Source: Carcharhinus amblyrhynchos (lineage: Eukaryota). Taken from it: a stretch of DNA of 64,000 bases. The DNA lies in contig OZ336876.1 of assembly GCA_965287045.1 (NCBI GenBank), positions 5,146,001-5,210,000 of the forward strand. Reading direction: 5' to 3'. Positions 5,907 through 60,266 of this stretch are shown here, piece after piece. The position numbers were made by a program, and so were the translations under genes. The notes beneath the pieces were generated by a model. That model ran no database searches and was not told where the DNA came from. It was given only the letters and a program-made list of their open reading frames with translations. The stretch's first letter is position 1, and every line of letters starts with the position of its first letter.

Positions 5907-5995
5907 TATTTATACCAGAGCAAATCTTTAGCGGCATTTTAATATGGTCCCATGGCTGGCATTAGTGTCAAATCGTTGAACAAACAGATGAAGCC
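5907..5995 (-). promoter_or_regulatory. Putative G1 promoter: TATAAATA (5907-5914), O/E-like TCCCATGG, TAAT and forkhead/E-box element (5976-5995)
   Basis: TATA box ~66 nt upstream of the ATG. The 20-mer ttgaacaaacagatgaagcc is 18/20 identical to 24467-24486 upstream of G2. Confidence 0.6.
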
Positions 5996-6469
5996 TTGAT
6001 CACTGTTGATAATACGGGTACAATATCATGATTTCCTATTCCCAAAGTACAAAGAGAGAAAATATCACTTTAATTGGTAATCCCAAGCAATATATTTTCA
6101 CAACAACGATTCTACAATAATGATCCAACTTCAATTTGGACATATGTTTAGATAAATGTAAGGTATTGGTGAGAACAAGTGTGCATTATTGTCATATATT
6201 GCATTACTGTCTGATTTTACTTATTAACGGTCTAACCCTCTTCTTCATTGCACAAGTATATGTGTAAGTATAATGAGACACAGTACTGTTTGTGAGATGG
6301 CAGAATACTCAGGTAAACACGGCGGGTGTTAATTTATGAAGATTAACAGTCCCTTAGATGTGTAGAAATCTGACACTCTGGATGTTATGACATGCCTTAA
6401 ACAGAACGAAAGAAGTGTTGAAAACTATACATTTAGCTTGATTCATTGATACGGATTGAAAATAGTTGT

Positions 6470-6900
6470 GGTCCAAGAAATGAACTCTGCCGGAAGCCGC
6501 TAGTTACAGATTGACAACTGGAGAATGATCCATTTACCCCAATCCACTGTTTTCAATCAGTCAGTAAATCTTCAATCCAGTCCAAAACACCCGCAGCTCA
6601 ACCCCTTGAGACCTAACCTTCTGGATCGATATTTTGTATGGCACTTTATAAAATGCCTTCTGGAAGTCCGGACAGATTATATCCACATTATCTATCTGGC
6701 TGGTTCCATCCTCAAATAACTCTAGCAGATTTTTCAAACAAGACTTGCCCTTCAAAAGCCATGTGACATTTCTGAATTGAGCTTTGATTTTCCAGATGCT
6801 CCGTCCCCTCCCGCTTCCCTGTCACAGATGTAAAGCTGACTGATCTATAGTTTCCCACATTTTCCCTCTCTTTTCTTGAATTAAGGCGCCACATTAGCAT
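6470..6900 (-). mobile_element. Degenerate CR1 LINE RT fragment
   Basis: GNYRSVS, GKSCLKNLLELFE and DFQKAF motifs, with frameshifts. Confidence 0.8.
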
Positions 6901-7789
6901 TATATCCTTACTAAATGATATATTTTAAACCTTTTGCAATCCCTTTTCCTCTCAGCAATGTACCTGAGTCCTCATGACTTCAATACTTCTCTAAACATCT
7001 GTCAACGTCCTTTCACCGTTCTCCCCTTTGAAACTCTTGCCCAGTCTTCCTTGGCCCGCTCTTCCATTAGGCCTGTATGATTACCCAATGCTTAAGTCAT
7101 CTCACTTCCAATCTGAATTTCACCCCTTCCAAGTGGATCTTTAACAATAAGGCTATGAACTAATCCCTCTTCATTACACTAATTGCAACAAAGGGAGTGA
7201 AACCAAAATTCACCAAATTGATTCCCAGCATTGATCGTTTGTCTGATAGCACATGAATTAATAACTTGGTCTCTATGCTGTGGCGCTCATAAAAAAATAA
7301 TTTATTGATAAAAAAAACTGAGGACAATGCACAGCCACCACCCACCCACCCTCACACTCCTGCCAGGCTAGAATCATTGCATCCCACCGTAAGAAAGTAC
7401 TGATTTCCGAGCTTTTTTTCTAAATTTCAGCCGGAAAATCCTCGATGCATGCAATATGTTGCCCGCCCAACTTAATCATCACCCACCCCCACCCCCTCAA
7501 ACACACACACGCACAAAGCATGCTTACTTCATGAGCTCTTAGTTGCACATAAACTGTGGACTTGGATTGTTGTCAAATACCTACTTGACCACACAAAGTG
7601 ATACATACATGGACCAGTCAAGCATAGCATCCATCAACATTCCTTTCCAAATTACGTTCCTGTTTTCTGGCTTCACTTAACTGTAGTTGTATTCCAGTGT
7701 CCTCTATTTCCCACCGTATTTTATTATTCTACCACCGGGTTCTGTCAATGTTCCTCAAGTGTGGATATTCGTTGATATTTGCAGATCAT

Positions 7790-8580
7790 TCCCCACGATT
7801 AAGAGCAAAAGGGATAAAATTGGTCCTCTTGAAGATCAGACTGGTCAGCTATGTATGGAAGCAAAAGAAATGGGGGAGATATTAAATGTGTTTTTTTTGC
7901 ATCCGTATTTACTAAGGAAGCTGGCATAAAGTCTATGGAAATAAGGCAAACAAGTAGGGAGATCATGGAACATTTTCAGTTTAAAGGAGGGGAGCTGCTT
8001 GCTGCCTTGAGGCAAATCACAGTAGATAAATCCCCAGGACCGGACAGGGTATTCCCTCGGACCTTGAAGGAGACTAGTGTTGAAATTGCAGAAGCCCTGG
8101 CAGATATATTTAAAATGCCAGTATCCAGGGTGAGGTGCCGGATGATTGGAGGATAGCTCACGTTGTTCTATTGTTTAAAAAAGGCCTAAAAAATAATCTG
8201 GAGAACTATAGGCCCGTAAATTTGACGTCAGTAGTAGGTAAATTATTGGAAGGAGTATAAGGGATAGGAGCTATAAATAATTGGATAGATAGGGACTTAT
8301 TAGGGAGAGTCAACATGGCTTCGTGCGTGGTAGATCATGTTTAACCAATCTATTAGAATTTTTCAAGGAGGTTACCAGGAAAGTGGATGAAGGGAAGGCA
8401 ATGGATGTTGTCTAATGGACTTCAGTAAGGCCTTTGACGAGGAGATAAACATACTTCCAATTAAAAAGGGATGAAGGCATATGGGGAACAGGGGTGAAGG
8501 TGGATTTGAAACCAATGGAATATCAGCCACGATCTTATTGAATGGCGGAGCTGCCTCAAAAGCCTGAATTTTCCTACTTG
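7790..8580 (+). mobile_element. CR1/HER1-type LINE fragment (ORF2 part joined to a 3' end)
   Basis: IGPLEDQ, KSPGPD, NYRPV, GRSCLTNLLEFF and DFSKAFD motifs, then an abrupt jump to a 3'UTR-like sequence at ~8441. Confidence 0.85.
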
Positions 8581-8789
8581 TGTACCTAATTCACATATTT
8601 CATAGCTCAATATTGCATTTTTATCTGATACACCAATTCAATTTTGAAGCATTTGGGTTTTGTTGCCTTTTTCAGGTTGTTGTTCTGTGCTGCCACATAA
8701 TAAATATTAACTGGCTTCTGCACATCTGTCCATGTCTTCCTATAGTTGGTTACTACTTTCCTTATTGATCCTCATATTTTCACATATTT

Positions 8790-9050
8790 CATGGATGGAT
8801 GGAAATGTGGATGGATGGATGGATGGATGGATGGAAATGTGGGTGGATGGATGGATGGATCATTGGATGGATGGATAGTTGGGTGGATGGGTGGATGGAG
8901 CGAGGAATAGAGGCCTCAAGTGCAGGATAGAGGGATAGATTGAATGACAGATTGATGGACGGAGGAAGGAAGTGAGGGAGGGAGGATCTGTGGGATGGAG
9001 GATCTGAGGATGGGAAAGGAGGGGAGAGATGGCCAAAGGATGGAGAGGTA
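8790..9050. repeat. (GGAT)n microsatellite and purine-rich low-complexity tract
   Basis: Visible tandem GGAT units; explains spurious ORF 8789..9193. Confidence 0.9.
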
Positions 9051-10020
9051 ATTAAAAAGAACATAGTACAAAGGAATGAGTGCAACAGGCTAGCATTGGC
9101 AATAGACAAAAAGGGGTGAAGCAGAGTGAGCAAGAAAAATGCAATGAGAAAATAAGAGTGAAGATGGAATAGATATGATATAACTTGATCCAATTTAGAA
9201 AGAGGGAGACTTCAAATAAGATGTCAAGAGGCCAACATTTGTAAACACAGCTCGCCTTGTTTATTCTTATGACCTTTTAACCGAAATCAGATGTCATCAG
9301 ATGGAGGGATTTATTATGGGAATAATAAAGAATTCTATCCTATGAAGCTGAAGGTGCTGTTGCTAATGGTGTAGTGTGAGAAATACAGGAATGCTGAATA
9401 GCTGAATTGTAGTAACTTAGAAATCGGTGGACGTTATGCTTTCTTTGGAATATTTTGTCACTATTTAGGGAGTTATATGTAACAGACTTAAAGAGGTACG
9501 GCGATCTGTCGTTGATGCAGGAGTTCTAGGTCTAGGGAACGTTGTTTCAGACGCAGGGGTTACAGTTGAGTAGGATTGTGAGAAGTAGTGTAATTTTTAA
9601 GGCTGCAAGAGCTAACAGTACAATCAGCAGTGATGGACGAGTTCAGCAGCATACAGAAAGGGGGAGGCACATGACAGACAGTTAACTAGGTTACACGAAA
9701 CAGATAACCGCAGTGATGAGATTAAGCGCAAAATGGGAGTTGAGAGAGTGTTAATTGAAGGAATGACACAATACAAGCCATTTACAGTGTTTAAAGTTAA
9801 CAAGGTTAACAGCCAAATAAGGGGGAATAACACAATACAAGCCATCACAATGTTTGAAAAACAGTATAAAATGTGCTGCAAATCTATGTAAGGTGTGCCT
9901 ATTTTGACTAGACACCCGGTCTTGCAAGAACGACAAATAAAATCTTGCTCCTTCAGAACTTGACTTGACTAAATTGTTTAACTGTGAGCTGTGTTTCTCA
10001 CAGGATATAGTATATAAAGA

Positions 10021-10861
10021 AGGCAGATGGAGTATAATGTTAGCAAATGTGATGTTATCCACTTTGGTAGAAATAATAGTAGGAGGGATTATTATTTAAA
10101 GGGCGAAAAGCTGCAGCATGCTACGGTGCAGAGGGACCTGGGTTTCCTTGTGCATGAGTCACAAAAACCCAGCCTGCAGGTGCAGCAGATGATCAAGAAG
10201 GCAAATGGAATGTTGGCCTTTATAGCGAGGGGAATAGAATATAAAAGCAGGGAGGTCTTGCTGCAACTGTACAGGGTACTGGTGAGTCCGCAGCTGGAGT
10301 ACTGTGTGCAGTTTTGGTCACCGCATTTGCGAAAGGATATATTGGCCTTGGAGGGAGTGCAGAGGAGGTTCACTAGGCTGATACTAGAGATGAGGGGGTT
10401 AGCCTATGAGGAGCGATTGAATAGACTGGGTCTGTACTTCTTGGAGTTTAGAAGGCTGAGGGGGGATCTTATAGAGACATATAAGATAATGAGAGGGATA
10501 GATAGGGTCGAGGTAGAGAGATTCTTCCCGCTTAGAAAGGATAGCAGAACTAGAGGGCACAGCCTCAAAATAAGGAGGAGGGCAGTTTAGATCGGAGTTG
10601 AGGAGGAACTTCTTCACTCAAAGGGTGGTGAGTCTCTGGAATTCTCTGCCCATTGAAGTGGTGGAAGCTACCTCACTGAATATATTTAAGTCACGGGTAG
10701 ATAGGTTTCTGATAGACAAGGGAATTAAAGGTTATGGGGAGAAAGCGGGAAAGTGGAACTGACCCACTTCAGATCAGCCATGATCTTATTGAATGGCGGG
10801 GCAGACTCGAAGGGCTAGATGGCCTACTCCTGCTCCTATTTCTTATGTTCTTATGTTCTTA
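10021..10861 (+). mobile_element. Young 5'-truncated CR1 LINE (RT C-terminus plus 3'UTR)
   Basis: Open 187-aa ORF (QRDLG, KANGML, LEYCVQFWSP, RRLRGDLIE) and a (ttcttatg)n tail. Confidence 0.92.
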
Positions 10862-11330
10862 AGGAGGGAGAAAAGTTTGTAGTGCTCTAGAGGATTACGG
10901 AAATTATATTTTTGATGATTTCATGAGCAATCAAAGACATTGCACTTTTGGTGGCATGGTGCGTAGGGGGAGAATAAAAATATAATGTAATTATAAAGAC
11001 TTTAAAAGCGGGTAGGGATATGTGTTCTCTGGAAGGATTGAGGTTACTCAAATGAAGAGAGTATTTCCACATTGAGGTGTTAACATATAGAAACATAGCA
11101 GATAGGAGCATGAGGAGGTTATTTGACCCTTTGAGATTACCCCCCAGTCATCCAACCCAACAGCCTAATCCTTCTTTTTTACACATAACCTTTGATTCCA
11201 TTCGCCCCAAAAAGCTGGGAAATATTAGCAGCATCTGTTATGTTTAGAAAAAGGCGAATGGAGCAGTTTAAGCGACAGAGTTAATGAGAGTTGTAATTCC
11301 GGAGAAAGCTGAATGGATATTACAGTGTGT

Positions 11331-11645
11331 GCCACAGAGGCACAGCGGTTAGCACGGTTGCCTGTTAGCGCCAAGGACCCGGGTAAGATTTCCGGCGTGG
11401 TTCACTGTCTGCCTGGTGTTTGCACATTCACCCTGTGTCCATGTGGGTTTCCTCCGGGTGCTCCGATTTCCTCCCACAGTCCAAACGAATGTGGGTTAGG
11501 TGGATTGGCATGCTAAATTGCCCCTTAATGTCAATGGACTAGCTATGGTAAATGCATGGGCATAGGGCTTGAGTAGAGTTGTGGTCTTGCAGACGCAAAG
11601 GCAGAATTGCCTCCTCCTGCACTGTAGGATTCTGTGATTTTATGC
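11331..11645 (+). mobile_element. HE1-like tRNA-derived SINE
   Basis: A/B-box-like head, gggtttcctccgggtgctccg core and ctgcactgtaggattct tail. Confidence 0.8.
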
Positions 11646-12878: not shown

Positions 12879-13765
12879 TTAATCAATGTACTGAGCAATC
12901 CATACAAATGGATATTTTAACATCCTCATTATCTCAGCTCTGAAATTGGGCTGTGTCACCACATAAATAAAGGTGTTTGTGCAGCAGCTAAAATTCCGCA
13001 TCATAATGGTGACTGACACAAATATTTCATAACCATTAAGATCTAAAAATGAATTTAGCGCTCCAGGCATGTATAACACATACAGAAACCACAGAAGTAT
13101 GAAGTTGATGGATATGGCAAAGAGTAAAATAATAGACTTCTTTCTACTCTCAATCTCTGGATCACTGTTTTTTTCTGCCTTGTTCTGATCCTTCAATGAT
13201 TTGCGAGCTCGGCTGACCATTAAAATGCGTCTGAAAATCAGCCCGTTAAGGGAAAGAATTACAGCAAATGGGATCAATGGTGTTAACACCATTGAAAACA
13301 TTGTGAATACATCCCATCTCGGATCAGTATAGAAGGTTTCCTTATTATGACAGTACCACGATACATTGTTGATTACTTTCCAAGGTTCAAATCTGAAGTA
13401 ATGAGGCACATTTTTCAGACAGAACAGAATGGTTATTGTTGCAAGAACTACACCCGCAGTTTTATTGGTACAATATTTAGCTTTCAGCTTCTGGGACCCA
13501 ATGGCGACAAATCGATCAAAGGTAAACATGACAGTGAACCAGACAGAGCAGTCTACGGCTATTTGGAGAAGGACATTGACAACACTGCACACAGGGGTCA
13601 AGTCCAGGAAACCAACTGGGTAATAATAGAACCGGAACCGTTTCAGCATGATATCAGTGATAATAACCATCAGGTCTCCGGCTGCCATGGCCACCAGGTA
13701 ACGAATGGTGCAGCTGGAGAGGTCACACTTTCCCCGGAGTAGGATCAGAATCGCCATTAAATTAA
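12879..13765 (-). CDS. GPR139-like GPCR, gene G2, exon 2 (spliced CDS 954 nt, 317 aa)
   Basis: Intact 7TM ORF (DCSVWFTVMFTFDRF, DPEIESRKKS, SCCTNTFIY). Acceptor ctctctacag|TT-AAT-TTA (phase 1, V-N-L). Confidence 0.9.
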
Positions 13766-14179
13766 CTGTAGAGAGAAGGGAACAGAGCATGGAAATGACA
13801 CATCAACTTTCATTTACATGTTATATCATCGCGTTTGGATGTCCCTTATCAGGTCAGCCCTTACTGTGAATGTCGACTTGTCCTTGAGAAGGTAATGGTG
13901 AGTGCCCTTTTTGAATTGAAAGCGAGGAGGTGAGAGAGAGAGAGAAAGGATGATTTAGACATAAGACTTCAAACTGAGGACTAGGAGAGTCGAAGGCAGA
14001 TTGATCGGTAAGCTTTGGTTAGTTTAGAACCACTTTCTTCCATGCTAAAAGTGAATGGTAAATATCCATTTGATTATGACGTTTACCTATATCCCCAAGA
14101 GTCAGCATGTTCTACCTAATACGTGCCATTCGTCTTCTTACACTTGTGTGTCAAACTAAGACTGTAACATTCCGTTACA

Positions 14180-18129: not shown

Positions 18130-18543
18130 ATAACTGACATTTTTTTTTCAACTCCGGAGAGGGGAAAACAGATGACGCTGCTTCTTCTCTCAAATCCAAA
18201 TAGCGTCTGAGAAAATCAAACTAAAGACAACAACTTCAGAGAGTGGGGAAAGTCACAGTTGATGCTCTCCAGTTCAGGCAACTGCTAAAAAGCAAAACTA
18301 AAAAAATGGACTTTTCTGCTTTTATCACATGACATAAATAGCCAGTGAATTTCCATTGAACAATCCCAAGGGAGCATTAAAACACATAGGACCTTGCATT
18401 AGTCCAGCTTAAAATTAACATTATATCAATTATGCAGCTTCAGTAACACACATAGGATACCGGTTACAGACATTATTGTACCAACAAGGTCTTGAAAAGG
18501 AGCATGATTAAAATACACTTTTTAAAGATACAGTAAAGCCACA
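17721..18543 (-). mobile_element. Putative 3' LTR of a Gypsy element
   Basis: On the minus strand a polypurine tract (ggaaggaggag) is followed by TGTGG at 18543; the segment ends ...gttaACA at 17721, directly downstream of pol remnants. Confidence 0.6.
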
Positions 18544-24254: not shown

Positions 24255-24321
24255 CAGGAACCCCAATGGTGGTAAGGGCCGTATAGAATATTTTCCTGAC
24301 CATTTCTATTGGCGTATGCAT
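24255..24321 (-). CDS. Gene G2 exon 1 (MHTPIEMVRKIFYTALTTIGVP+G)
   Basis: ATG at 24321, 22 codons plus 1 nt, donor G|gtaagt. The nearest downstream exon 2 is at 13765 (intron ~10.5 kb). Homologous to G6 exon 1. Confidence 0.8.
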
Positions 24322-24405: not shown

Positions 24406-24486
24406 AATTTATACTCTGTAGAATGTCCCCTGGGTATTGAAGTTACAACATTTAATGTCGTAGGTTTTGAATAAACAGATGACGCC
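24406..24486 (-). promoter_or_regulatory. Putative G2 promoter: TATAAAT, O/E-like TCCCCTGGG (24426-24434), forkhead/E-box ATAAACAGATG
   Basis: Same motifs at similar spacing as in the G1 upstream region. Confidence 0.6.
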
Positions 24487-26562: not shown

Positions 26563-27762
26563 GGGCCCGATTTTACCAATCGGAGCCTAAGGACCGGATC
26601 CAGGCGTAATATGGATCCGAGCCCGGAATCCTCATTCCAGCGCGTCTCTGCGCTTCTACCCGCTCCGATCCGGTCCGCGCTGTGGGCGGGGCTTAGCGCT
26701 GCCGGACCGTTCGGATCTCTGAACTGCGCGTGCGCAGTTCAAAAAGTCGGCAGCAGCGCGCCCGAGCGATGGGTTGAAGTGCGCAGCTGCGGTGGGTCGT
26801 GCCTTCTGGAAGCTTGCTCCCTGCTGTGTATCCTGTGTCAGAGTCCCCAGGCAGAACATACAGTAGTTCCCTTTGGAAGGCAGCTCTATGCCAGGCTGTA
26901 TCTTGTTTTGGTGGTACGACCTGATGGGTCCATTATCAATATCCGATACAAGGAGCCTAAAAAAATTAATATGATGCCAGTCGACGTTTCCCTTCTGCCA
27001 GAAGCTGAAAGGAAACCAAGATTGTGCAAATGTGTTTCCAAAAGAACTAGAACGAAAAGGGAGAAATTTGAATATGAATTTAAAATTGACAATTATAGCA
27101 AATTCTGGAGGAAGAAGTAGTCTTCAAAAGTTTGGGTTTTAGAAACAACCATCACTGGATTGCTTAGTTGGTGTTGATATCAGTGGAACTTTGACAAATG
27201 CACATATTATTGTGCTGTCATTAATAAGTTGTGTTTTTTTTAACTTATGATCGACTCCATTTATTTTGTTCTTATATGTTTCTGCAGGAAGGATACAGGG
27301 AATGAAAATAACTGATTCCTGTTTTTATTTCTATTATTATATGACTTAAATGCAAGGAGAAAATGCTTTGAATGTTAATTAAACAGTACACATTCACATT
27401 AATTCTGTGCCCCCTGTTCCTGATTACATTTGTGTGGATTTGACTTGCGTATATTTAGTTGTTTGTGTGATGCTTCATTACAACTAGTTGCAGGAAAAAA
27501 AACAGAAAGCGGAGAGAGCAGCTCTCGTCACATCAGCCTCTGGGGGGAGGAGGGGGCTCTGATGGATCTGTGGACTAGGGGGAGGAGGGTGGCGTGCTCA
27601 GATGGATCTCTGCGTGGGTGAGGGAGGAGAGGGCCCAAATCAAGTGTCGGTAAAGTCGCGAACTCCTTGGATTCGGGTGCAGATCGCGTTAAAGGCCCGA
27701 CACCCAAATTTACCGCATTTCGGGCCCGAAAAAGGGCGCGAATGTTTGGTAAAATCGGGGCC
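26563..27762. mobile_element. Non-autonomous TIR DNA transposon (PIF/Harbinger-like) enclosing an MRPL55 copy
   Basis: Left end gggcccgattttaccaa (26563-26579) matches the reverse complement of right end ttggtaaaatcggggcc (27746-27762) at 16/17. CpG-rich subterminal arms. Left flank TTA, right flank AAA, so the TSD is imperfect. Confidence 0.7.
26770..27502 (+). pseudogene. MRPL55: Processed (retro)copy of mitochondrial ribosomal protein L55 (bL31m); CDS homology ~26860-27120 plus AT-rich 3'UTR and short A-tract
   Basis: RQLYARLYLVLVVRPDGSIINIRYKEPKK..MPVDVSLLPEAERK.RL...YSKFWRKK matches the MRPL55 core. No intron. R->C changes consistent with CpG decay. A-tract at ~27494-27502. The 5' boundary is uncertain. 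Confidence 0.88.
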
Positions 27763-27835: not shown

Positions 27836-28761
27836 TCAGGTTGATAGGCTGTTGCCATATCTCATCATCAAATGCCAATTCCAACAAAATGCCTTCCAGC
27901 TTACCATCCAATTTGATAATGCGGACAGTAAAAGCGACAGCCACGCTCGAATACATCTTTATGGTAGGCCACAAAGCCATGTGGTTGTACACGATCTGAG
28001 AAGTTTTAACATATTCCCTGCGCTATAAGCCATATTCAGAGGGTGTGCCCAATTCGGGACATTATCGGACTTGGAAATATTTGCGTAGAAAACCATGATC
28101 ACTTCTGTCAACCACAATAAAATAAAACAGAGAAGTAAAATCATAGATTTCCTCCGACTCTCCATTCCTGGATCTTCACGTTTCTCAGCAATGCCCTGAC
28201 GGCAGAGCTTCCTCCGGGCTTTACTCGACGCTAAAACATATCTGACGGTCAGAAAATTAAACAAGATCAGAAAGAAAGGCAGCAGTGGGATTGAGACATT
28301 GTGGAACCAGGAGAATGCCAGCCATCCAGGAAGAATATGAGCATCTACCTTTTTCATACAACCAATGGGCCCACCTATTTCCTAAGATTCATATGTGAAG
28401 TAGTAGGGGATATTAGTTAATAAACTCAACATATACACGCTTCCTATCACCATCCTTGCAGTTTTCAATGTGGAGTATTTGATTTTAAACGTTTGCCAAC
28501 AAATGGAAACGAAACGAACATGAATGAAAACAACTGTTAGCCACACCGAACAATCAAGGCTTATAAATATCATCACTTCCTGAAGTATACAGGGGACAGT
28601 GTGAGTCATGTGGCTGTAAATTGTACTAAAGATGAAGCTTATCACTACACTGAAGAAGATGACCAGTAGATCTGCTGCTGCCATCGCTATTAGATAGCTG
28701 GTGATGCATTTAGTGAGTCGACATCTTGCTCGGCAAAGAATGATAATCATCAATAATTTAC
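27836..28761 (-). pseudogene. GPR139-like pseudogene G3, exon 2
   Basis: Acceptor cccaaaag|GT-AAA (TM1 N->K), DRF->VRF, in-frame TAG at 28382-28384, a short deletion in TM6 and an in-frame TAA at 27959-27961 before helix 8. Confidence 0.88.
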
Positions 28762-30150
28762 CTTTTGGGGGAAAAATACAAAGAAATTGAAGCATAGATT
28801 TTTCTTCTGAATATTTTAGAGTTAACCAGAATTTATATTCGGTTCAATTGGTGAAGGAGTTGAGAGGTTATCTGATCGTCGTGGTCCTCCCATCACCCAT
28901 TCGTTTCGAAGTTGCTCCACTCCTGAATGAAGAGTCAGAACAGCGTTTGAATCCCAGTCCCCAGCGGCAATACTGAGCAGTGACTGCATAGTCCATCCCT
29001 TATTGGATCCGCAACCCAACGTTAATAAGTTCAGAAAAATGGCCAAAAGTAATAAGGATCAAGTGTGGGGTAAACCTAAAGCTTTACTCAGTAATACGGT
29101 CTGAAAACATTGCAAAAACTACGAAAATTACAATGTTTCTTGACCGACGCAGCTCTTTGATGTTACATTCTGAGTTTTCTAGATTAAAAGGCCAATTGTG
29201 GTGAAATAGATGAGTAACCATTTTAAATTATTAATCAGTCTTTGTTTCCTTAATGGATTCTTTCAAATCCGATTGTAATGTGTTTCAATGTGCGATCTTA
29301 CTCAGCATTACAATTTCAGGCTAAGTTAATTGATCCCCTGCCTTAGTCTGACATTACTGGACTGACAGTCTGACAGCCCATCCAATGATCTTGGAAAATC
29401 AGTGGCATGAAGGATGAGCATTATGTTGTTATCTCGAATTATATGGCGGATTCTGATTTTTCAATCATTTAATCAAGTGTGAAAGGTCATGACATGCCCC
29501 GCTCCTAATCAACTGGAATCGCCAATTTTAAAACAAATAGCCACATGTGGATAACTGTCAATCCGACGAGCCGTGCTAAAGACAGGTCCAGCATCAATCA
29601 CGTTACTCAATATTAAATATAAATTACGTACAGCTCTAGTTTTCGTGTCTTCGTTATCGTGTATCTGATAAGTAAGCATATTTTTCCCAACAGATCCACC
29701 TCGTTCTAAAACCTATTTCATTCAGAACTTCGTTATAATTCTGGTGATTCATTGATGTATAGAGTGCAAAGTTTGATAATGGAGACTTCTTCTTGTAGTA
29801 AACAGAACATTTCTCATTCCCTCTAATATGTTTTACTGAGTTTAGTTTTAATTACTTGCCGGAAGTAACCTTGGACATCAGATTGCAGGGTGTTTTTCTC
29901 CCAGTCACTCTAGTATCCACCTTCAAAGCCGAAATATTGTTCGGGGAGCTCTGAAATGCAATTTCATTCAGTGAATTATGTACAAAATCAATTTCAATAG
30001 AATACAATATACTCTGAAAAAATATTTTCACTTGAGAGAAAGATCAACAATAGCAAATAACATGGAGAATGCATCGTTAGCTGTCCAACAGCCACAATGT
30101 TAAAACCTTAAAACCGACGTAGATTGAATAACAAACTTATATTGACATAT

Positions 30151-30223
30151 CAAGAATTCCAGTGAACGTTATAATGCGATAGAAAATAGATTGAGTTGTA
30201 TAAAATATCGTTATCCTCTCAAT
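30151..30223 (-). pseudogene. Degenerate exon 1 of G3 ([I]ERITIFYTTQSIFYRIITFTGIL+G)
   Basis: Aligns to the other first exons (IYYPILAIVGVP-G). Start reads ATT and donor reads G|atatgt. The promoter module homologous to G1 lies just upstream. Confidence 0.6.
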
Positions 30224-30351
30224 GGTTGACACTGTTGTGCTGTCTATGAAATTCAGTGTCTGATTCCTGTTGGGAATAAAGGCTTTAAACGTGGCTTTCT
30301 GAATATTCTAAAGCAGCATACCTCATGGAATCGCGTTGTTTTGATTAAGCT

Positions 30352-30439
30352 TCCCCAGGATCATTATTAGTTTCAGTTATTTGAACAAATCGTTTGTGGA
30401 ACTGCTGGCACCTCTCATAATTCTTTAATTCCCCTGGAG
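30352..30439 (-). promoter_or_regulatory. Decayed promoter module of G3
   Basis: attagtttcagttatttgaacaaa (30366-30389) is 19/24 identical, ungapped, to G1 5961-5984. O/E-like TCCCCAGGA (30352) and TCCCCTGGAG (30430). The E-box is lost. Confidence 0.5.
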
Positions 30440-33124: not shown

Positions 33125-34170
33125 TTAAGTTCCCTCTACAGTGTCCCATTAAATTTCCCGAGTGCAGGTCTAGCACAGGCTGAGATACATGGAAAATGCT
33201 CCTCTACACTGTCTCATCAATAAACTCCAGTGCAGGTGTACCACAGGGTGAGGTGCAGAGTAAATATTCCTCTGCACTGTCTCATCAGTAAACTCCAGAG
33301 TAGGTGTACCACAGGGAGAGGTGCAGAGTAAATATTCCTCTGCACTGTCTCATCAGTAAACTCCAGAGCAGGTGTACCACAGGGAGATGTGCAGAGTAAA
33401 TATTCCTCTGCACTATCCCATCAATAAACTCCAGTGCAGGTATACCACAGGTTGAGATACACAGGAAATCACCATCTACGCTATCCCATGAAAAAGCCCA
33501 CTGAAGGTATAAAACAAAGTGAGATGCACATGTATACCGCTCTATACTTTCCCATTAAGATCTCCAGTACAGATGCAGCACAGGGTGAGATACACAGGGA
33601 ATTTTCTCTAGACTACCCCATCAAGAATTCCAGTACAGAGGTGGCACAAGGAGAGATGTACGGAAAATGTCCTTCTAACTGGCCCTTCAAGACTTCAAGC
33701 AATGATGTAGCACAGAGTGAGATTAACAGGGGTTCTCCTCTCGACTGGCCCTTCAGGAACTCTAGTGCATGTGTATCACAACATTAAATACGGTTCTGAA
33801 CTCCCTGTACATTGCCATGAAACATTCGCTCATGAGTGACACACAGGTCAAGGACAGACATATTGTCCCGATACTGTCCCTTTCAAACACCCACAGGGGA
33901 GGTAAAGCACGGGGTTGCATGCCAACTAATGCAAACTCTGCAAAGCGACATTATGTAGTTCACTGTAAAAGGTGTTTCCTCTGCATTGATCCTCAACCTG
34001 AATCTTTCTTCTGCATATCACATGGGGACATTCTAAATTGGGATTCATTTTAATATTTCCAAGGATAGGGATTGCACGGGGTAAAGTGCAGAGCTTTTGT
34101 CTGCATTGCCATCCCAAAATGCCAGGTTCCAGTACAATGTACCTTCTGTATGAATCATGTTTCCCTCTAA
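33125..34170. repeat. Tandem array of 66-68 bp units, about 15 copies
   Basis: Unit starts at 33133, 33201, 33269, 33337 and 33405 (period 68). Unit cctctgcactgtctcatcagtaaactccagagtaggtgtaccacagggagaggtgcagagtaaatatt. Confidence 0.92.
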
Positions 34171-41672: not shown

Positions 41673-42586
41673 CTACCCTTGATTATACCTTTTTAGCCAT
41701 TTTCCTAATTTAATTATAAGAACGAACGGATATTTGAACAGATGTTTTAACTCCTCCCTGAATTGTGTCTGGGAAACTGCATACATAACTGGATTGGAGC
41801 AGGAACTTAAATCCTGCAGCATATACCCAATTCGCTGCAGAACGGTGAATGCATCACTGAGGTCGGTCTGCAAATACCGAACTTCTCCAATCAGAACACA
41901 TACGTAATGAATAAATGTTAGCATCCATAAAAGTATAAAGCTGCCAGATATGACCAAAAGTAAAATGATGGACTTTCTTCGGTTTCCCATTTCTGGATCA
42001 CTGTTGTGGGTGTGCAAAGCCCTCCTAATCTTGCTTCTGAGCAGAATGTATCTGATGGTCAGGCTATTCAATAGAACAATAAAAAGAAATGGAATAAAAG
42101 GCATCAAAACCGTGTCAAACCATGAGAATACAACCCAAGTAAGGGAACTGTAAATGCTTGATTTCAAAACACAGTACCATGACATCTTTTTAATTATTTC
42201 TCCAGGCTCAATGGTGAAGTAAATCGGTAGATTTTGAAGCAAGCTAAGCCCCCATATTATTGCTACAATTTGAGCTGCAGTTTTCTCTGTGCAGTATTGT
42301 GTTCTTATTTTCTGACAACAAATTGCAACAAAGCGATCAAGTGTCAATGCGACAGTTAACCAGACAGAACAGTCAATGGAAGCAGAAAGCAGGAAAACAT
42401 TCAGACTGCAGGCGACAGTGTGGTCCAGAAATGAAACTGGGAAGTAGAATTCTTTGATCTGATATAGGATGACTTCCACGATCATGACCAGAATATCGGC
42501 GGCTGCCATGGAGATCAAGTAAATAGTGATGCATTTAGAAAGGCCACACTTGCCGTTGTATAGAATAATGATGGTTAACAAGTTGG
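41673..42586 (-). CDS. GPR139-like GPCR, gene G4, exon 2 (spliced CDS 984 nt, 327 aa)
   Basis: Intact 7TM ORF (DCSVWLTVALTLDRF, DPEMGNRRKS, SCSNPVMY). Acceptor tcatttacag|CC-AAC-TTG (phase 1, A-N-L). Confidence 0.9.
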
Positions 42587-46777: not shown

Positions 46778-46847
46778 CAGGAACACCAACTATTGCAAGA
46801 ATTGGGTAGTAGATTGACTCTATCTGTGTAAGTAGTGGACGTGCCAT
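46778..46847 (-). CDS. Gene G4 exon 1 (MARPLLTQIESIYYPILAIVGVP+G)
   Basis: ATG at 46847, 23 codons plus 1 nt, donor G|gtaagt. Splices in frame to 42586 (intron ~4.2 kb). Confidence 0.85.
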
Positions 46848-46912: not shown

Positions 46913-47020
46913 TTCTTATACACTGGAGGGAAATCTCGAGAGATCTATTTCACAATTGATGTGAGTTTCAGTAATCAGCTTGAGAATATTAGTCATGCCT
47001 TATGATTGAGTAACACATCC
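46913..47020 (-). promoter_or_regulatory. Putative G4 promoter: TATAAGAA, ATCTC-NN-GAGAT palindrome (46933-46944), ATTAGT..TTGAGTAAC
   Basis: TATA box ~66 nt from the ATG, as in G1. Only a partial match to the shared module. Confidence 0.45.
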
Positions 47021-49793: not shown

Positions 49794-49803
49794 TTACACA
49801 CAA
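49598..49803. repeat. (CA)n/(CT)n microsatellite, low complexity
   Basis: Directly visible. Confidence 0.9.
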
Positions 49804-49824
49804 GCAGATGCTGAAATGTCTTGT

Positions 49825-51523: not shown

Positions 51524-52422
51524 TCATTGAACAATATTTAGTATTTTGGCGAAGGGACATTTCAACAGAATCTTCAACTGTTCTCTGAACTTAGTTTGTG
51601 TCACAACATAAATGCCAGTGTTTGTGCAGCAACTCACCAGTTCCAGCATGAAGCTCACATCCATCACAAAATTATCTAGATATATAGATTTATACCCCAT
51701 ATAATAATGTGATTCCAACTAGAACAAATCATTAACGTTGACCGTAACAGCATAAAATTGGCCAAGATTAAAAAAACAGTAAAATGATGGATTTCTGCTA
51801 ACTCTCCATCTCTGTGTCTCTGCGGCTCTCACCACTGTTCTGATTCCAGAGTCTCCTGCAGAATTTGCTGCTCACTAAAAGATAGTTGAAGTGAAAACAT
51901 TGAGCAGCAAAATCAGGACAAATGGAACACAGGGTGTTTAAATATGATGGAGGAACTCAATTGTTGTCAAAGCCAGAGACTCTTGAACATCCTGTGTGTA
52001 ACAACAAAACCAGGGGTCATTCATCAATACATGCCGCTCTGTTAACATAAAATACCAGAAAATATTCTTTAAACAGCTCAACACAGTGACTGTCCCTAGA
52101 ACTGCAGCTGCTGTTTTCTCTCTGAAATATTTACTTTTCAGCTTCTGGCAGGATATGGCCACAAATCAATCGAAGGTGAAAGTGACGGTGAACCAGACAG
52201 AGCAGTCAGTGACAGTAAATAGCAGGACAGCGTGTATAGAGTGCACAGGATGGACTTCAGAAAAAGGAACACTTCTGAATAAACAATTGGAATTTGCCTA
52301 AATATCAAGTCAAGGGATAATAACCATTAGATCTGCCATTGCCACCACCACCAGAAAATGAGTGACACCTTCAGAAAGGCGATGTTTGTTCCGAAACAGG
52401 ATTAAAATACTGAGGAGATTAA
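51524..52422 (-). pseudogene. GPR139-like pseudogene G5, exon 2 (no exon 1 identified)
   Basis: Acceptor ccctcacag|TT-AAT-CTC. Frameshifts in TM2/ECL1, DRF->D*F (TGA 52166-52168) and further stops. Ends SCCTNTGIYVVTQTKFR. Confidence 0.9.
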
Positions 52423-52727
52423 CTGTGAGGGAAGAAATCAAACAATGATATTATGCCTCAGATTAAGGAAAATTGCACCTGGTTGATTGTGGATTATTGT
52501 GATTTTCCAATGTGCTACTGTAAATCTTGATTTTTTTGGAACATTTGGCATTTAAAGAATGAACAGGATGGTCAGTGAAAAATGAATGGAAAGGGACATT
52601 AGCTAACAGAACCAAGAGTCTGTTTGGTAATATGGACATGAATGAAATGTGTGCACATTTATCATCAAAATGTGAATGTGAGGATTTATATGAGTAAGTT
52701 CACAGATGATACGAAAATTGGAAGACT

Positions 52728-53050
52728 AACAGTGGTAAGCGTTGCTGCCTCATATTCCAGAGACATGGGTTTAATTCCAGTCTTGGGTGAATGTGTAGAC
52801 TTTGCACTTCTCATTGTTGCTGCATGGATTTCCTCCAAGTGTTCCGGTTTCCTCCTGCAGGCCGAAGTTGTGTGTGTGTTAGGTGAACTGGCCATTCTAT
52901 ATTGCCTCTAAGTATTCAAGAATATGTAGGCTCATGGGATGAATGTGTGGGGTTCCGGGTATAAGGCAACGGGAGGAGCTGTTGTAGAGTCAGTGCAGAC
53001 TCGAGGGGCCACATTGCCTCTTTCTGCAATGTAAGGATTTTATTCGATTC
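52728..53050 (+). mobile_element. Diverged HE1-like SINE
   Basis: cagtggtaagcgttgctgcctca head, ccggtttcctc core and gcagactcgaggggcc tail. Confidence 0.75.
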
Positions 53051-54254
53051 TAGTGCATTATTTTCTAATCTTGTACAGTCTGGGGCCATTCGGCCAATCG
53101 AATCTGCAGTCTCTGAAATAACCTTCCACCCAGTGCCAATCCGTGCCTGATCCCCATGATTTTTCATGTCATGCACTATTAAAGGAGATTGGAGATGGTG
53201 CCTGGCACCTTTGTCAGATTGGTAATCTGCTGGGAGTCTTTCTGTTGTCTGTTAAATTAGAAAGTCTGGAATGTGGCTTGTAAAAGAAGCAAATGTGAAG
53301 TGAGGAGAAAAAAGTATTTTCACTTAAAGGGAGTTCGTCTTTGGGATGCACTGCCTGCAAGTCTGGTGGAGGCAGGTTCAATAGAATCATTGACGAAGGC
53401 ATTAGATAGTTATTTGAATATATAAAATGTGCGGGTGTGCGGACAACAGACATGGGAATGGCACTAAACCCTGAATGCTCAATAGTAGAGCTGGTGCAGG
53501 GCGATAGGCCACATTTCCTCCTACTGCAATATATCAATTATATGATTGATTCTACGACTTACACACCGAAAGCAGTCGCCACTCAAACCGGATTGCAACA
53601 GAACAGCCCTTAAAAATTAAGTGAACTTCTGTAGAACTTTTTCAGCAATGATTACGTTGATACTGTTGGTCGTGATCTGCAGTACGAGATGTATTGGGTG
53701 CTACAGTAATAAACCTATGGACGATATGGTCGCTTCTGGTCAACCAAGTATTTTTAGTAGACTGAAACAAGTCAGAATCCTAATTTTCTTCTCCTGTCTC
53801 TACAAATTTAGCTGAATATCCACTTCTGCATTTACATTAACATGTTTCAGACAGCTGCTGCCATCTTCCCACTCTGACATTAACCAATGTCAAACATTGT
53901 TCCCGGAGCTGCAAATCGTGTCTGCCCATTCCACATCCTCCTGCTGTGAAAGCTGGGCTGCGTTCCCGCTGCGATAAACCAACAAAACAAAAAGTGGTTA
54001 AAGATGGAGGAGAAAGTTCAGAGTCTGAATTTGTTGGGCTCAGTCAGTGTTGCGTTTTCAAGGCTGTGAAGTGCCAAATCGGAAGATGTGATGGTGTTCC
54101 TCCCGTTTTCGTTAAGCTTCACTAGGGCACAGGAGCAGGCCAATGGCAGACATGTGGAGTTGAGAGTGAGATGCAAATTTGAAATGACAAACAACTGGAC
54201 GGTGGTGAAGACTAAGCAGTCGCAAACCTGGTAACTTTATATTGGCCCTCGAAC

Positions 54255-54990
54255 AATCTCAGCCTCTGTAATCACCTCCAGTCCCTGCAATTTTCCCTAT
54301 CTATTTAAAATCTCCCAGACCTTACAAATTTCTCTATCTCTGTAATAAACTACGTCCGCTTCAATCCTCCCCATTCTCCAACTCCTACAAAATCTCTCCC
54401 CATTTAACCTTAAGACATTCACTTTCTCTTTTACATGTGCCAGCATGAACAACCATCTCCATCACTTTGATCTGCTCAAGCAACTTTTGTAATCTGCTCT
54501 AACAGCTCCCCTTCCACCCTCTATAATTTCCAATAGCCTCTACAACTTACCCTTCTCTGTTAGCTGTTCCAGTCCTACAATCTTTCCTATCTCTGTTTAC
54601 TTCTCCAGCACTATAACGCGTATGTTCTCTGTGTTCACCTCCAGGCCTACACATCACGCTCTCTGTTACCTTCTCAGGCCTCTACAACACTCCCCATCAT
54701 TAAAATCTCTAAAACCCCGACAACCCTCACTTTCTCTATAATCTCCCTACCTCGAAACATCATTCACCTCCCCACAATTATCCCTTTCACAACCATCCCG
54801 TTTTCTTCTCCAGCTCCTATAACCTTCCCTTTCTGTTCTATCTTCCCCAGACACTACAACCCTAACTTTTCCTGTATTCACCTTCAGCGCCTACACACCC
54901 ACCTTTCTCTGTAAACTTCTCCAGCCCCTAAAATATCCAGTTCAATGTAATCTCCTGGAATTTTAATCACTCCCCCATTGCAAGATGAAA
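54255..54990. repeat. Diverged C/T-rich ~36-39 bp tandem repeat (ctctgtaacctcctccagccctacaac-type)
   Basis: Recurrent ctctgt..ctccag..ctacaa units; a similar array lies at ~62960-63500. Confidence 0.75.
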
Positions 54991-55744
54991 TCTATCTATC
55001 TCCTGAAGTAGCCCAGACGTTCAATTCCCCCCTTCCTTTCAGATAGCACACGCTATTTCACTTGGTGTAAAATATTTTCTTCCTAAAGTTTGCATGAATT
55101 GCATTCTGCGACAATATGGAATAAGTTAAATAAATATAACATTTATCATTTATCTCATTCTGCGGCACTCTCTCATTTATTCCCCTCCCAGTCGGCGCTT
55201 CTCACGCACTCTCACGTTGTTTCTATATCTCTTCTAATAGCTCACAGAGAATCCCTCTCTCTCTCTCTCCCTGCCTGATTCTATCACTCTCTTTCTCTCT
55301 TTCATCCATCTTTCTATGTTTGTCACAGTAAGTACACGGTTATCTCTCTCTCCTATCCTTGGAAACTACCCCTCGTTGTTCCTGTCCTCCAAGCCGCCCC
55401 AACTCGCTCTATCACTCCCACTCCCGCTCTCTCTCACTTTGCATCTGGTGCGTAACTCTCACTTTCCTTCCACGTCCCTCGCAATTCCACATTTTCACTC
55501 CACACCTTCCTAGCCCCTATCTTTTACCTCCTCCATCTCTCCCCCCATCACTCTCAATCCCTCTTCTCTACATCTCTCCTCTACCAGCATCTCTTCCTGC
55601 TTGTCTTTCTTATCCCCTCCCCTTTATATCCGGAACTCTTCGCTCCATTCCTCCCTCTCTATCTGACATTTTTCTTAGGCACACCTTCTTCTCCCTTACC
55701 CCAGTCTTCGAGTACACGCACGTCCATCATTATTATACCATGTC

Positions 55745-55910
55745 GAAGTATGTGCAGGTTAGGTGCATTTGTCATGCTAAATTGCCCCGTAGAGTCAGGG
55801 GGGCTAACTAGGGTAAATGCATGCAGTTGTGGGGATGGAGCCTGGGTGGGATTGTGGTCGGTGCTGCCTCAATGGATTGAATGGCGTCCTTCTCCTCTAT
55901 GATTCAGTGA
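55745..55910 (+). mobile_element. HE1-like SINE 3' half
   Basis: gtgcaggttagg..catgctaaattgcccc..gcctgggtgggattgtggtcggtgc. Confidence 0.75.
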
Positions 55911-56888
55911 ACTATAGCCAGACGTAAGAGAGAAAGGCCTGTGTTTCTATTTTGTGATTTTCCATCCTCAGTTTAGTATGATCAGATGATGCAGCTGCAG
56001 GCAAGTAGCATGGGCGCCACACGAGTGCCAGACAATGACCATCTCCAACAAGGGAAAAACTAAACATTCTCCCCTGAAATACAATGTAAATTCCAACACC
56101 GAATCCCCACCAAAACTATCCTGGGGGTTACCACTGACCACATACTGAAATGAGCTAGACAACAAATTACATCCTGACTGCCCAAAACCTGCTCAAAATC
56201 TACAAGGCAAAAGCCAGAGGTGGATGGAGTGCTTTCCCCTTACCTGGAGGACTGTCGCTCCAATCACACCACATGGACAGAGCATCTGAAGAATGCAACT
56301 CACAAACATCTTCTCGAGTGCCACTGGTTCTCGAAAATAAATTCTAGACTTGCCAGCGAAGCGGCATGTAAATATATATGGAGAACCTTCCCTGGGAATT
56401 CTGATGCGGATAACTTAGCGGAGTTTATTCAATATTTAATCACAAAATCTCTCCCCTCTTTTCAACAAGTAACAAGGGTCTCACGAAGCATTCTCTCAGA
56501 TGTGACCTATTTACTGGGACAACCAAAGATTATAAAACTTAGGCTGCAAAATCAGAGGTCACTTGATCTGCTCAGGAACGGAGCACTTGTATCCCCAAAG
56601 GAGATGTGAATCGTCTTAAGCCAGGTCAGTTAGCAGGATATTGAAAACCCAGGCAGTATGGTGGGGGTTGCAAGCAGTGTGAGACGAACCCAAGATCTTG
56701 GTTGAGTGCACCCTCATGCGTGCGGAACTTAGCTTCCGATTTCTGCTCAGATAATCTGTGCTGTCTTGTATCTTGAAGGCCGTTGGACAAAGTATCAGAA
56801 CGTTAGACAGAGCTACAGACCAACTAAGGAGCAAATTGGCACAATCCCTCCAACCTGTACTCAGAAATCAGAGGAGGACACCCAGCCC

Positions 56889-58570
56889 CATAAGAACATA
56901 AGAACATAAGAAATAGGAGCAGGAGTAGGCCATTTAGCCCCTCGAGCCTGCCCCACCATTCAATAAGATCATGGCTGATCTGTCGTGGCTCAGTTCCACC
57001 TTCCCGCCCTCTCCCCATAACCCTTAATCCCCTTGCCTATTAAAAACCTATCAACTCGTGTCTTAAATATATTTAGCGAGGCAGCCTCCACTACTTCAAC
57101 GGGCAGAGAATTCCAGAGATTCACCACCCTTTGAGTGAAGAAGTTCCTCCTCAACTCCGTTCTAAACCACCCCCACCCCCCTTTATCTTGAGGCTGTGCC
57201 CTCTAGTCCTTTCTGAGCGGGAAGAGCCTCTCCACCACTATCCTATCCATCCCATTCATCATCTTATACGTCTCAATGAGATCTCCCCTCATTCTTCTAA
57301 ACTCTAACGAGTACAAGCCTAGTTTATTCAGCCTCTCCTCATAGTTCAACCCCCTCAACTCTGGTATCAGCCTAGTAAACCTCCCCTGCACTCCCTCCAA
57401 GACCAAAATATCCTTGCGTAAGTGTGGCGACCAAAACTGCACACAGTACTCCAGCTGCGGCCTCACCAGTGCCCTGTACAGTTGCAGCAAGACCTCCCTA
57501 CTTTTATATTCAATCCCCCTCGCTATGAAGGCCAGCACCCCCTTTGCCTTCCTGACCACCTGCTGCACCTGCAGGCTGGGTTTTTGTGACTCATGCACAA
57601 GGACCCCGAGGTCCCTCTGCACCGTTGCATGCTGCAGTTTTTCGCCATGTAAGTAATAATCCTTCCTACCATTATTCCTACCAAAGTGGACAACTTCACA
57701 CTTGCCAACATTAAATTCCATTTGCCAGTTCCTGGCCCATTCACCCAGCCTATCTAGATCCTTCTGCAGACTTTCCACACACTCCGCAGAATTTGCCATT
57801 CCACCAATCTTGGTGTCATCAGCAAATTTCGACACCATACACTTGGTTCCCTCCTCCAGATCATCTATATAAATGGTAAATAGCTGAGGCCCCAGCACCG
57901 ACCCCTGGGGCACTCCACTAGTCACCAACAGCCAATCTGAATAGCACCCATTGACCCCCACTCTCTGCCTCCTATTTGACAGCCAATCCCTATCCACGCT
58001 AACACCCTACCCCTGACTCCATGCCCCCTGACCTTCTGCAATAACCTCTTGTGCGGCACCTTATCAAACGCCTTCTGAAAATCAAGAAACACCACATCCA
58101 CCGGCTCTCCTCTATCCACCGCCCTAGACACATCCTCATAGAATTCCAATAAATTCGTCAGACATGACTTCCCCTTAACGAAACCGTGCTGCGTCTGCTC
58201 TATCAAACAATTCTCCTCAAGATGCCTCGCTATTTTGTCCTTCATCAGGGATTCTAACACTTTACCTACAACAGACGTTAAACTAACCGGCCTATAATTC
58301 CCTGCCTTTTGCCTGCCACCCTTCTTAAACAACGGCATAACATTAGCCGTTTTCCAATCTTCCGGCACTTCCCTGGAATCCAGCGATGTTTGGAAAATGA
58401 TCATCAAGGCATCCACTATCACCTCCGCCATTTCTTTCAGATCCCTTGGATGCATTCCATCCGGTCCTGGGGACTTGTCCACAATCAGTCCCTCCAGTCT
58501 TTCGAGCACTGCCTCTCTAGTAACAATAATGTTACTCTTGAGCTTTTAGCAGTTTGCACTGAGATGGTGG
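56889..58570 (-). mobile_element. Young 5'-truncated CR1 LINE (RT domain, one frameshift at ~57995)
   Basis: Two long overlapping ORFs (KSPGPDG, NYRPVSLTS, DFQKAFD, PQGSVLGP, FADD) and a (cataagaa)n tail. Confidence 0.95.
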
Positions 58571-58699
58571 CAGATCTGTACCGTAATTAGTTCAAACAGG
58601 CGGAAATCGGCGAGCATTCCTGTCCCAGTATTAATAAAATATACTGTTTTGTTATTGTGATCATTGATGTTCCCAGTGAATGACGATAACCAATCAAAT

Positions 58700-59060
58700 T
58701 GGGCCATCCTTTCTACTTTGCCTCCATTAACGTAGACACGGGCATGCCCTTCACTAGGCTGCCTGAAGTCGATGATTATCCCCTTGGTTTTGTTGACATT
58801 GAGGGAGAGATTATTGTCGTTGCATCAGCTCACCAGGTTCTCCATCTCTTTCCTGCACTGTGTCTTGTCATTGCTTGAGATCCGATCCACAATGGTGCTG
58901 TATCATCAAACTTGAAAATTGGGTTGGAGGGAAATTTGACCAGTCCGAGGTGTATATGGAGGATAGGAAGGGGCTGAGCGCACAGGCATGCAGAGCATCA
59001 GTGTTCAGGACGATCGTGCAGGAGGTGTTGGACGAAGTTTGGCGTGGAAGTTGAGATTGT
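58700..59060 (-). mobile_element. Rex1/Babar-type RT fragment
   Basis: Degenerate PQGCVLSP..YT.D and LSLNV.KTK..IIDFR motifs. Confidence 0.65.
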
Positions 59061-60169
59061 TGAAACAAACGCAAAGGTGATCGGAAAACTCAGTGTTGGA
59101 AGCTGAGTAGGGGAAAGTCAGGTCAATGGAGCTTTGGGAATCGGTGACTAATATATAATATTGATGCAGAGTTTGTCCACTGCATTGTAGACAATTAGCA
59201 GAAGGGTCACAGGTTGCCATTGAGCATGTAGGGGACGATATATTTCCAATACAACAATAATTACCGTGTTAAGTATCAAGAAAGGAATTGAAAAAATTGC
59301 AATCGAATGATGAGGTACGACATGGATTCTTTGGGGTTTTTTTCTGAACCAGTGAGAGATAGCGAGAGATTGGAAATCCTGCCACTTGAGGATCAATGTT
59401 TACGTTTTAGAAAGAGTGCAGAAATTGATTAAAAGAAATTTTCCGAGAAGCTGATCTCCTATAACATGCAGGAATCACAGTCCCTGGGATTGCTCGTCTG
59501 AGAGAACAGAAGTTGGGATAAATATGATTGAGGTGTTCAATACAATGACAGGTGTTAGCAGTATGGACACCAAAGCAGGCATGTCTAAAGCCAAAACACA
59601 CATGGTTACGTTGATTTGCAATTGAACCAATGATGAAAAGTAAGAGACGAAGTTTTATAAGACTTTTGGTTACGTCATGAAATTTACAACCTGAAAATGT
59701 GGCAAAGACAGATTAAGTGAGAAGCAAGTTGAATGAATAAATGAAAATAAAATTTGCAGCACATCAATGAGGAGATGTGGAAGTGAAATTAATTTAGCTG
59801 ATCTAGAAGAGAGGTGATAGTGAGGAGACAGATTAAATGACAAACTGCAGGTCTGTAAACATTATGTGATTTGTTTTCATTAAATGAATTATTGAAACGA
59901 ATTCGCTTGACTAAATTGAAGTCACATTCCAGGGTACAGAGAGTACCTGGAAGGACACTCTGACATTAGGGTTTAATGACTGAATGGTCAGTGAGACTGA
60001 ATTTCATCTCTGAACCAACATGAGGTCAAGAAACAGGAATCATGATGTGCATAGGAACATTTCTATCGCTATTTAACACAGTATGTAATTGTCCAACCTA
60101 CAAGGTAGAGACATTTCCAATTAGGCTTCCGCTCCTTGTATATTCCCTCCACTGGGCATTGGCATAGGT

Positions 60170-60266
60170 GTCGTCACCTTTTTTTTTCAAATTTAAGACA
60201 CAAAAACAATTTGAACACTTTTTTTCACAACATCAGTATCTCAATTGAGATCCTGGAATGTATAAA
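60170..60266 (+). promoter_or_regulatory. Putative decayed G6 promoter: module remnant (60170-60190), 14-bp palindrome ATCTCAATTGAGAT (60238-60251), TATAAA (60261-60266)
   Basis: gtcgtcacctttttttttcaaa aligns to G2 ggcgtcatctgtttattcaaa with the E-box and forkhead cores destroyed. Confidence 0.5.

Follow-up and report, generated by a model that had tools for sequence, protein, structure and literature searches.

Do the receptor genes clustered in this DNA share an upstream promoter element, and is that element kept where the gene works and lost where the gene has died? [quoted passage not shown] The spliced open reading frames (ORFs) of G1, G2 and G4 are open (324, 317 and 327 amino acids, respectively), and G3, G5 and G6 are broken, i.e. 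three of the six family genes in the window. A reading made from the sequence alone had proposed an E-box/forkhead element, intact in the functional genes and decayed in the pseudogenes. We found that the footprint is real, that its correlation with gene status fails, and that an O/E (EBF)-like site is the better lead.

The shared element and the O/E-like site

Five promoters, those of G1, G2, G3, G4 and G6, were compared. For G5, neither exon 1 (searched with nhmmer) nor a promoter was detected. Offsets are counted from the T of TATA, and the pairwise comparisons cover the 200 nt before TATA. The anchoring TATA boxes and the two best copies of the element are as follows (organisms A and B are close relatives).

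5908..5914, minus strand: G1 TATA box, 73 nt before the ATG, unchanged in organisms A and B
24407..24413, minus strand: G2 TATA box, 92 nt before the ATG
46914..46920, minus strand: G4 TATA-like box (TATAAG), 73 nt before the ATG
60261..60267, plus strand: G6 TATA box, 93 nt before the ATG, its flank conserved in catshark protein P0216
5976..5995, minus strand: G1 upstream element, with CATCTG at -76, TGTTTG at -72 and TTGTTCAA at -69
24467..24486, minus strand: G2 upstream element, with CATCTG at -68, TGTTTA at -64, TTATTCAA at -61 and a CGTCA half-site

Every string quoted in the sequence-only reading was located at its position. The 18/20 match between the elements of G1 and G2 was reached by none of 300 dinucleotide shuffles and remained unmatched when 200-nt tiles of real sequence free of repeats were paired 6000 times (best 17/20). 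The composite CATCTGTTTR occurs twice in the 64 kb, both strands searched, and the two occurrences are the promoters of G1 and G2. A de novo search of the five promoters returned the same block as the top shared motif at widths 10, 12, 16 and 20, where it was reached by 0, 11, 3 and 1 of 200 shuffles, respectively (46 at width 8). Against dinucleotide shuffles, seven of the ten promoter pairs, including all four with G4, were at chance.

The age of the two genes gives weight to this match. Among the four-fold degenerate sites of G1 and G2, 18 of 47 are identical (38%), which is near saturation. In a quick tree of family members only (SH-aLRT support only, midpoint root; 94 of the 120 relatives, those of at most 345 amino acids, and the six window genes), a 99% branch placed G1, G4 and all 14 ray entries on one side and G2, G5 and G6 on the other. 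The split of G1 and G2 appears to predate the divergence of sharks and rays, and elasmobranchs are given as more than 270 million years old in the catshark genome paper (PMC11979771). As the four-fold sites are near saturation and the genes are old, neutral survival of an 18/20 match is unlikely. The idea of a conserved cis-element is therefore supported by the similar distance from TATA, kept despite the near-saturated sites, and by the de novo recovery.

The factor labels given to it by the sequence-only reading are less well supported. Over the five promoters, neither CATCTG, named as an E-box (p = 0.12), nor TGTTTR, named as a forkhead core (p = 0.32), was enriched alone; only the composite was (p = 0.007, for a pattern derived from the data). 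The 20-mer by itself is an ordinary promoter footprint. Portions of it, or of its surroundings, were recognized elsewhere.

30366..30389, minus strand: G3 (pseudogene) block TTTGTTCAA..TGAAACTAAT, 19/24 to G1, no E-box
5961..5970, minus strand: G1 TGACACTAAT block with a TAAT homeodomain-type core, common to G3
47006..47013, minus strand: G4 TTACTCAA at -93, no E-box
60170..60190, plus strand: G6 eroded element, with CGTCA and TTCAA kept and CATCTG and TGTTTR changed

The 24-nt block of G3, described earlier as lacking CATCTG, had an ungapped score of 14 against G1, reached by 1 of 300 shuffles. The partial version reported for G4 was present as described, with a forkhead-type heptamer TATTTGT at about -132 and GACTAAT at -74. 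The loss of both cores in G6 was likewise confirmed; even so, this region is the best-kept upstream block between G6 and G2 (ungapped score 19, 0/300 shuffles), with 16/21 positions identical versus 55% at four-fold sites. The CGTCA common to G2 and G6 corresponds to a CRE half-site. The part that the family has kept is TTRYTCAA, found in G1 (-69), G2 (-61), G3 (-99) and G4 (-93) and absent only in G6; the pattern was derived from the data and has 22 copies in the window. It looks no less like C/EBP or PAR-bZIP sites than like forkhead sites.

The motif list of the sequence-only reading did not include an O/E-like palindrome, which is our stronger pointer to a sensory cell. The core tested, TCCCYNGRGA, is the consensus given in Table 1 of PMC3247239; the sites were spotted by eye and then tested.

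24426..24435, minus strand: G2 O/E (EBF)-like site, 8/9, at -22 from TATA
46934..46943, minus strand: G4 O/E-like site, 8/9, at -23 from TATA
60239..60250, plus strand: G6 O/E-like palindrome, 7/9 at -22 and -20, right half compatible with catshark P0216
30431..30440, minus strand: G3 O/E-like site, 8/9, at -151 from an uncertain TATA
30352..30361, minus strand: second G3 O/E-like site, 7/9
5948..5957, minus strand: weak G1 O/E-like site, 6/9, aligned by eye with the second G3 site, not significant

Sites of 8/9 were present in three of the five promoters, compared with 22 of 319 background tiles; among 2000 shuffles and among 1500 permuted motifs, 8 in each case did as well. The 200 nt further upstream contained no 8/9 site. 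When the score was anchored on TATA, it was reached by none of 2000 shuffles and by 1 of 1500 permuted motifs. The log-odds sum was reached by 3 of 8000 shuffles and by 63 of 200000 random five-tile sets, and with any one promoter dropped by at most 47 of 8000 shuffles. Of 16 motifs, O/E ranked highest in both tests; a score was obtained for the ARID consensus as well (p = 0.003), from the left flank, where the two overlap.

An outside check was provided by mis-annotated proteins. Among 236 relatives examined, 23 had N-terminal extensions, and these gave 345 tests. Among these models, that of catshark P0216 (68% to G6) runs through its own promoter: seven consecutive residues match G6 (0/20000 shuffles), in a stretch that covers the TATA box and the right half of the O/E-like site. 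Between species, then, the putative core promoter has been conserved and its distance from the ATG is unchanged, with the exact letters blurred by codon degeneracy.

The explanation that we favor, with moderate confidence, is an ancestral TATA-proximal promoter module that was duplicated with each gene and that selection would have preserved as the flanks reached saturation. The sharing of sequence, its position and its age are observed; the workings of the module are put forward conditionally. Within about 100 nt of TATA it would have three slots: an upstream block that closes with TTRYTCAA and is preceded by CATCTG in G1 and G2; a block with TAAT; and the O/E-like palindrome, 22-23 nt upstream of TATA. 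The subset kept differs from paralog to paralog: the E-box block and TAAT in G1, the E-box block and O/E in G2, and O/E, TTRYTCAA and TAAT in G4. Such a pattern would reflect turnover of binding sites rather than one element that is kept or lost as a whole according to gene status. An EBF/COE dimer might bind next to TATA, a homeodomain factor at the TAAT slot, and a bHLH or bZIP/forkhead factor at the block from -60 to -100, with transcription starting about 30 nt past TATA. The expressing cell would be differentiated and neuron-like, of a sensory or an endocrine type.

Several observations weigh against this explanation. G1 has no O/E site above 7/9, and that one is far upstream (p = 0.48). 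The TATA assignment of G3 is a guess. The O/E motif was chosen post hoc, and correction over some 150 motif families would raise p to about 0.05. There are only five promoters, which are related and not independent. In a TATA-anchored de novo scan, the block at -21 ranked first but was reached by 61 of 150 shuffles, so the O/E site fits a consensus and is not conserved letter by letter. Finally, organism B was represented by contigs from three runs of one sample, with 95-96% identity over 600 nt, and differences near contig ends were not counted. Its G1 20-mer carries two changes, a substitution at 5991, just before CATCTG, and the loss of one T at 5982 in TGTTTG. CATCTG and TTCAA are kept, and the forkhead core is broken. 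Two events in 20 nt compare with 0.9 expected (16 events in 364 nt); the cores are thus not kept over the flanks in this comparison of low power, and no constraint is visible at short range.

In organism A, 99% identical, the G1 element is unchanged. A change-free run at 5904-5981 in organism B was considered as a sign of constraint and rejected, because an equally long run occurs in 31% of random placements. Paralogous contigs at 80% identity contained exon 1 only, their 30-letter loose ends falling short of the promoter.

Some minor observations concern the promoters. Many database models of the family carry spurious N-termini, some of which run in frame through the promoter and are usable as promoter sequence. 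The N-terminus of horn-shark P0228 resembles the frame of the G2 O/E site (1/20000 shuffles, in one of the 345 tests) and is not colinear with exon 1, which makes it a weak lead. An RLHL stretch in P0080 was dropped because it lies at the wrong distance. The G2 intron contains an incomplete copy of this gene's upstream element (18160-18179, 14/20) and, about 190 nt away, the only 9/9 O/E site in the window (18364-18373); an intronic enhancer and chance are both possible.

The receptor family and the expressing cell

When the best 120 relatives of each of G1 and G2 were taken, all named entries were from sharks or rays (seven entries of one set were unnamed), most of them labelled 'probable G-protein coupled receptor 139'. 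With G2 as query, 1460 proteins were found at E <= 1e-40, and Heterodontus francisci (horn shark) has at least 84 entries (26 + 58 rows), some partial or mis-modelled. The family appears to be expanded in elasmobranchs. Six copies in 64 kb with three of them broken, beside the horn-shark number, agree with a large, clustered repertoire under birth-and-death evolution, as in chemoreceptors. Metagenome scans with the exon-1 pattern and with G1 gave no matches. No description of the expansion or of the promoters was found in titles and the starts of abstracts, subscription journals being mostly outside the scope of that survey; 'gpr' is absent from the main text of the catshark genome paper (PMC11979771), and 'shark' from the GPR139 review.

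The nearest solved relative is GPR139, the best match in the PDB (E = 1.9e-7 for G1 and 3.2e-18 for the profile). For G1 this match is barely above unrelated peptide receptors (33.8 bits versus 31.5 for the CCK-A receptor). The label 'GPR139' is loose, and the likeness to human GPR139 is only distant. Among the GPR139 ligand-site residues F109, H187, W241 and N271 (PMC5430874), G1 retains two of four (F/D/W/Y), G2 one (Q/S/W/I) and G4 one (S/D/W/Y). Like GPR139 and GPR142, the family has an invariant W6.48. It differs from them in having D or E at H187 (25/28 rows) and Y at N271 (26/28), in the missing P6.50 of all 28 rows, which carry the cysteine pair between transmembrane segment (TM) 3 and extracellular loop 2 in 28/28, and in its dozens of copies per genome. 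Position 5x43 is acidic in 25 of 28 rows; this and the absence of P6.50 hint at cationic or amine ligands. Exon 2 of the family starts at A-N in TM1, where GPR139 presumably has its intron also.

Which cell would use such promoters? The O/E site is characteristic of mammalian olfactory receptor (OR) promoters; in mouse, these are enriched in O/E, homeodomain and TATA motifs, and a conserved O/E site is present in 78% of 314 (PMC3247239). Like mammalian OR genes, the shark genes are class A GPCR genes arranged in tandem, with pseudogenes common among them, and they carry TATA boxes, TAAT cores and O/E-like sites no more than 200 nt from where transcription presumably starts. The O/E enrichment in that interval is of the OR type, in three of five promoters and with a motif picked by eye. 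However, the shark genes are not ORs, considering their 7tm_1 domain only, their nearest structure (GPR139) and their coding intron in TM1. Their promoters add the E-box/TTRYTCAA block, and G1 is without a good O/E site. Moreover, no clear enrichment of TAAT motifs was seen in them: TAAT or ATTA is present in all five promoters, with one TAAT block common to G1 and G3, and the consensus scores of BCDF, DLXF, HOMF, NKX6 and PDX1 gave p values from 0.06 to 0.79.

We tentatively suggest, with low confidence, that these genes could form a further elasmobranch family of chemoreceptors that arose from the GPR139/142 branch, with dozens of genes clustered in each genome, with OR-like promoters (O/E, homeodomain and TATA, and an added bHLH block) and with one or few receptors expressed per cell of the olfactory or another chemosensory epithelium. 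Cartilaginous fishes are described as having large olfactory organs, yet the olfactory receptor genes known from them number about 10-50 (PMC10116579). If the suggestion is true, the family would outnumber that count, and a clustered orphan GPCR family with an O/E-like promoter site would be a direct candidate for the missing olfactory repertoire. Among the 50 genes given as most specific to brain and nose in catshark there is no GPCR (PMC11979771); sparse expression could explain this absence.

The sensory or neuronal expression proposed by the sequence-only reading is something that we can only infer, and an E-box with a forkhead core may equally be an endocrine signature. EBF factors, too, are active in a wide range of neurons and in other cell types. 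An E-box with a forkhead motif marks Neurod1/Foxa2 sites in endocrine beta cells (PMC4492000), and GPR142 is endocrine (PMC6323244). The promoters might then be of an endocrine type (Neurod1 E-box, Foxa and Pdx1-type TAAT), and the receptors might sense nutrients or metabolites in endocrine cells of the gut or the islets, as GPR142 does. In both systems the E-box adjoins the forkhead core. However, the co-bound Neurod1/Foxa2 elements are mostly intergenic or intronic, whereas here the cores overlap, the sites are putative, and they lie in the proximal promoters of two of five paralogs. Such a promoter type also leaves the O/E-like sites unexplained, the amino-acid pocket of GPR139 is only partly kept, and dozens of paralogs with many pseudogenes would seem to fit external sensing better. 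We consider an endocrine role unlikely, if a little less so than the alternatives below. It concerns the cell type and can be combined with the promoter footprint; if true, it would mean an unusual expansion of nutrient sensors.

Neutral survival and gene status

The matches might also be neutral leftovers of descent, products of short gene conversion, or post hoc chance, with no present function. The two changes in the G1 20-mer between close relatives agree with this, as do the patchy presence of the element, the few sequences and the picking of motifs by eye. However, 18/20 would not survive neutrally beside near-saturated four-fold sites, no tile pair among 6000 reaches the match, the offset from TATA is the same, and the flanks have no conversion tract. 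This explanation appears improbable to us, and the ancestral promoter module remains our preference.

Gene status was taken from the following exons. Coding exon 1 is 67-70 nt long in G1, G2 and G4 and is followed by a phase-1 intron in TM1.

5772..5841, minus strand: G1 coding exon 1, phase-1 GT donor
1465..2369, minus strand: G1 exon 2, spliced ORF without internal stop
24255..24321, minus strand: G2 coding exon 1
12879..13765, minus strand: G2 exon 2, spliced ORF without internal stop
30151..30226, minus strand: G3 exon 1 remnant (pseudogene), without ATG, donor AT
27944..28762, minus strand: G3 exon 2 remnant, with a stop and frameshifts
46778..46847, minus strand: G4 coding exon 1
41673..42586, minus strand: G4 exon 2, spliced ORF without internal stop
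51527..52422, minus strand: G5 exon 2 remnant, several stops
60354..60420, plus strand: G6 exon 1 (pseudogene), in-frame stop at codon 7
60826..61578, plus strand: G6 exon 2, one stop, homology ending before TM7

The claim that the element is intact in functional genes and decayed in pseudogenes was not borne out. CATCTG stands beside TGTTTR in two of the three intact genes and in neither of the two pseudogenes with a promoter, a distribution expected by chance at p = 3/10 (hypergeometric); the correlation has no power. Intact G4 is without CATCTG within 200 nt of TATA, yet it is closer to G1 than G2 is. In G6, exon 2 must have broken recently, because it is 93.6% identical over 251 amino acids to an open Mustelus model. 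Since that model lacks the part before its second Met, the stop in exon 1 of G6 may be older as well, and the three core changes in its element may predate the break in exon 2.

The least probable explanation, in our view, is that a single E-box/forkhead/homeodomain element is required for expression and decays after gene death: CATCTGTTTR is confined to intact G1 and G2, CATCTG is missing from both promoter-bearing pseudogenes, and each of G1, G2 and G4 has a copy of the looser forkhead heptamer TRTTTRY, which G3 and G6 lack. Against this, the counts are compatible with chance, G4 does without the E-box, TRTTTRY occurs often in AT-rich sequence, the forkhead core of G1 is broken in organism B while exon 1 there has a single synonymous change, and the three core changes of G6 would exceed what a short decay readily gives.

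The terminal branch of intact G2 (0.83) is longer than that of pseudogene G6 (0.37), and G2 deviates in exon 2 (12879-13765, minus strand) at residues conserved across the family. This may be fast evolution or relaxed selection. With such a branch and such changes, 'intact' may not equal 'functional'.

Other features of the window

The junction of the G1 intron and exon 2 (2327-2434) has a 70% copy at 1270-1380, directly past the stop codon, a trace of partial duplication. G5 (minus strand) and G6 (plus strand) lie head to head across LINE-rich DNA (52422-60420). A match at 58829 was considered as exon 1 of G5 and rejected as LINE sequence. Within the same interval, a stretch containing CCCAGGGA was noted near 59485 (minus strand). 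Rfam gave no match.

Between the G2 promoter and G3, an intronless MRPL55-like frame is present at 26600-27120 on the plus strand (Pfam Mitoc_L55, E = 1e-23), with a GC-rich 5′ part; it is probably a processed retrocopy. A tandem array of diverged 68-nt repeats, about 650 nt long, occupies 33133-33780.

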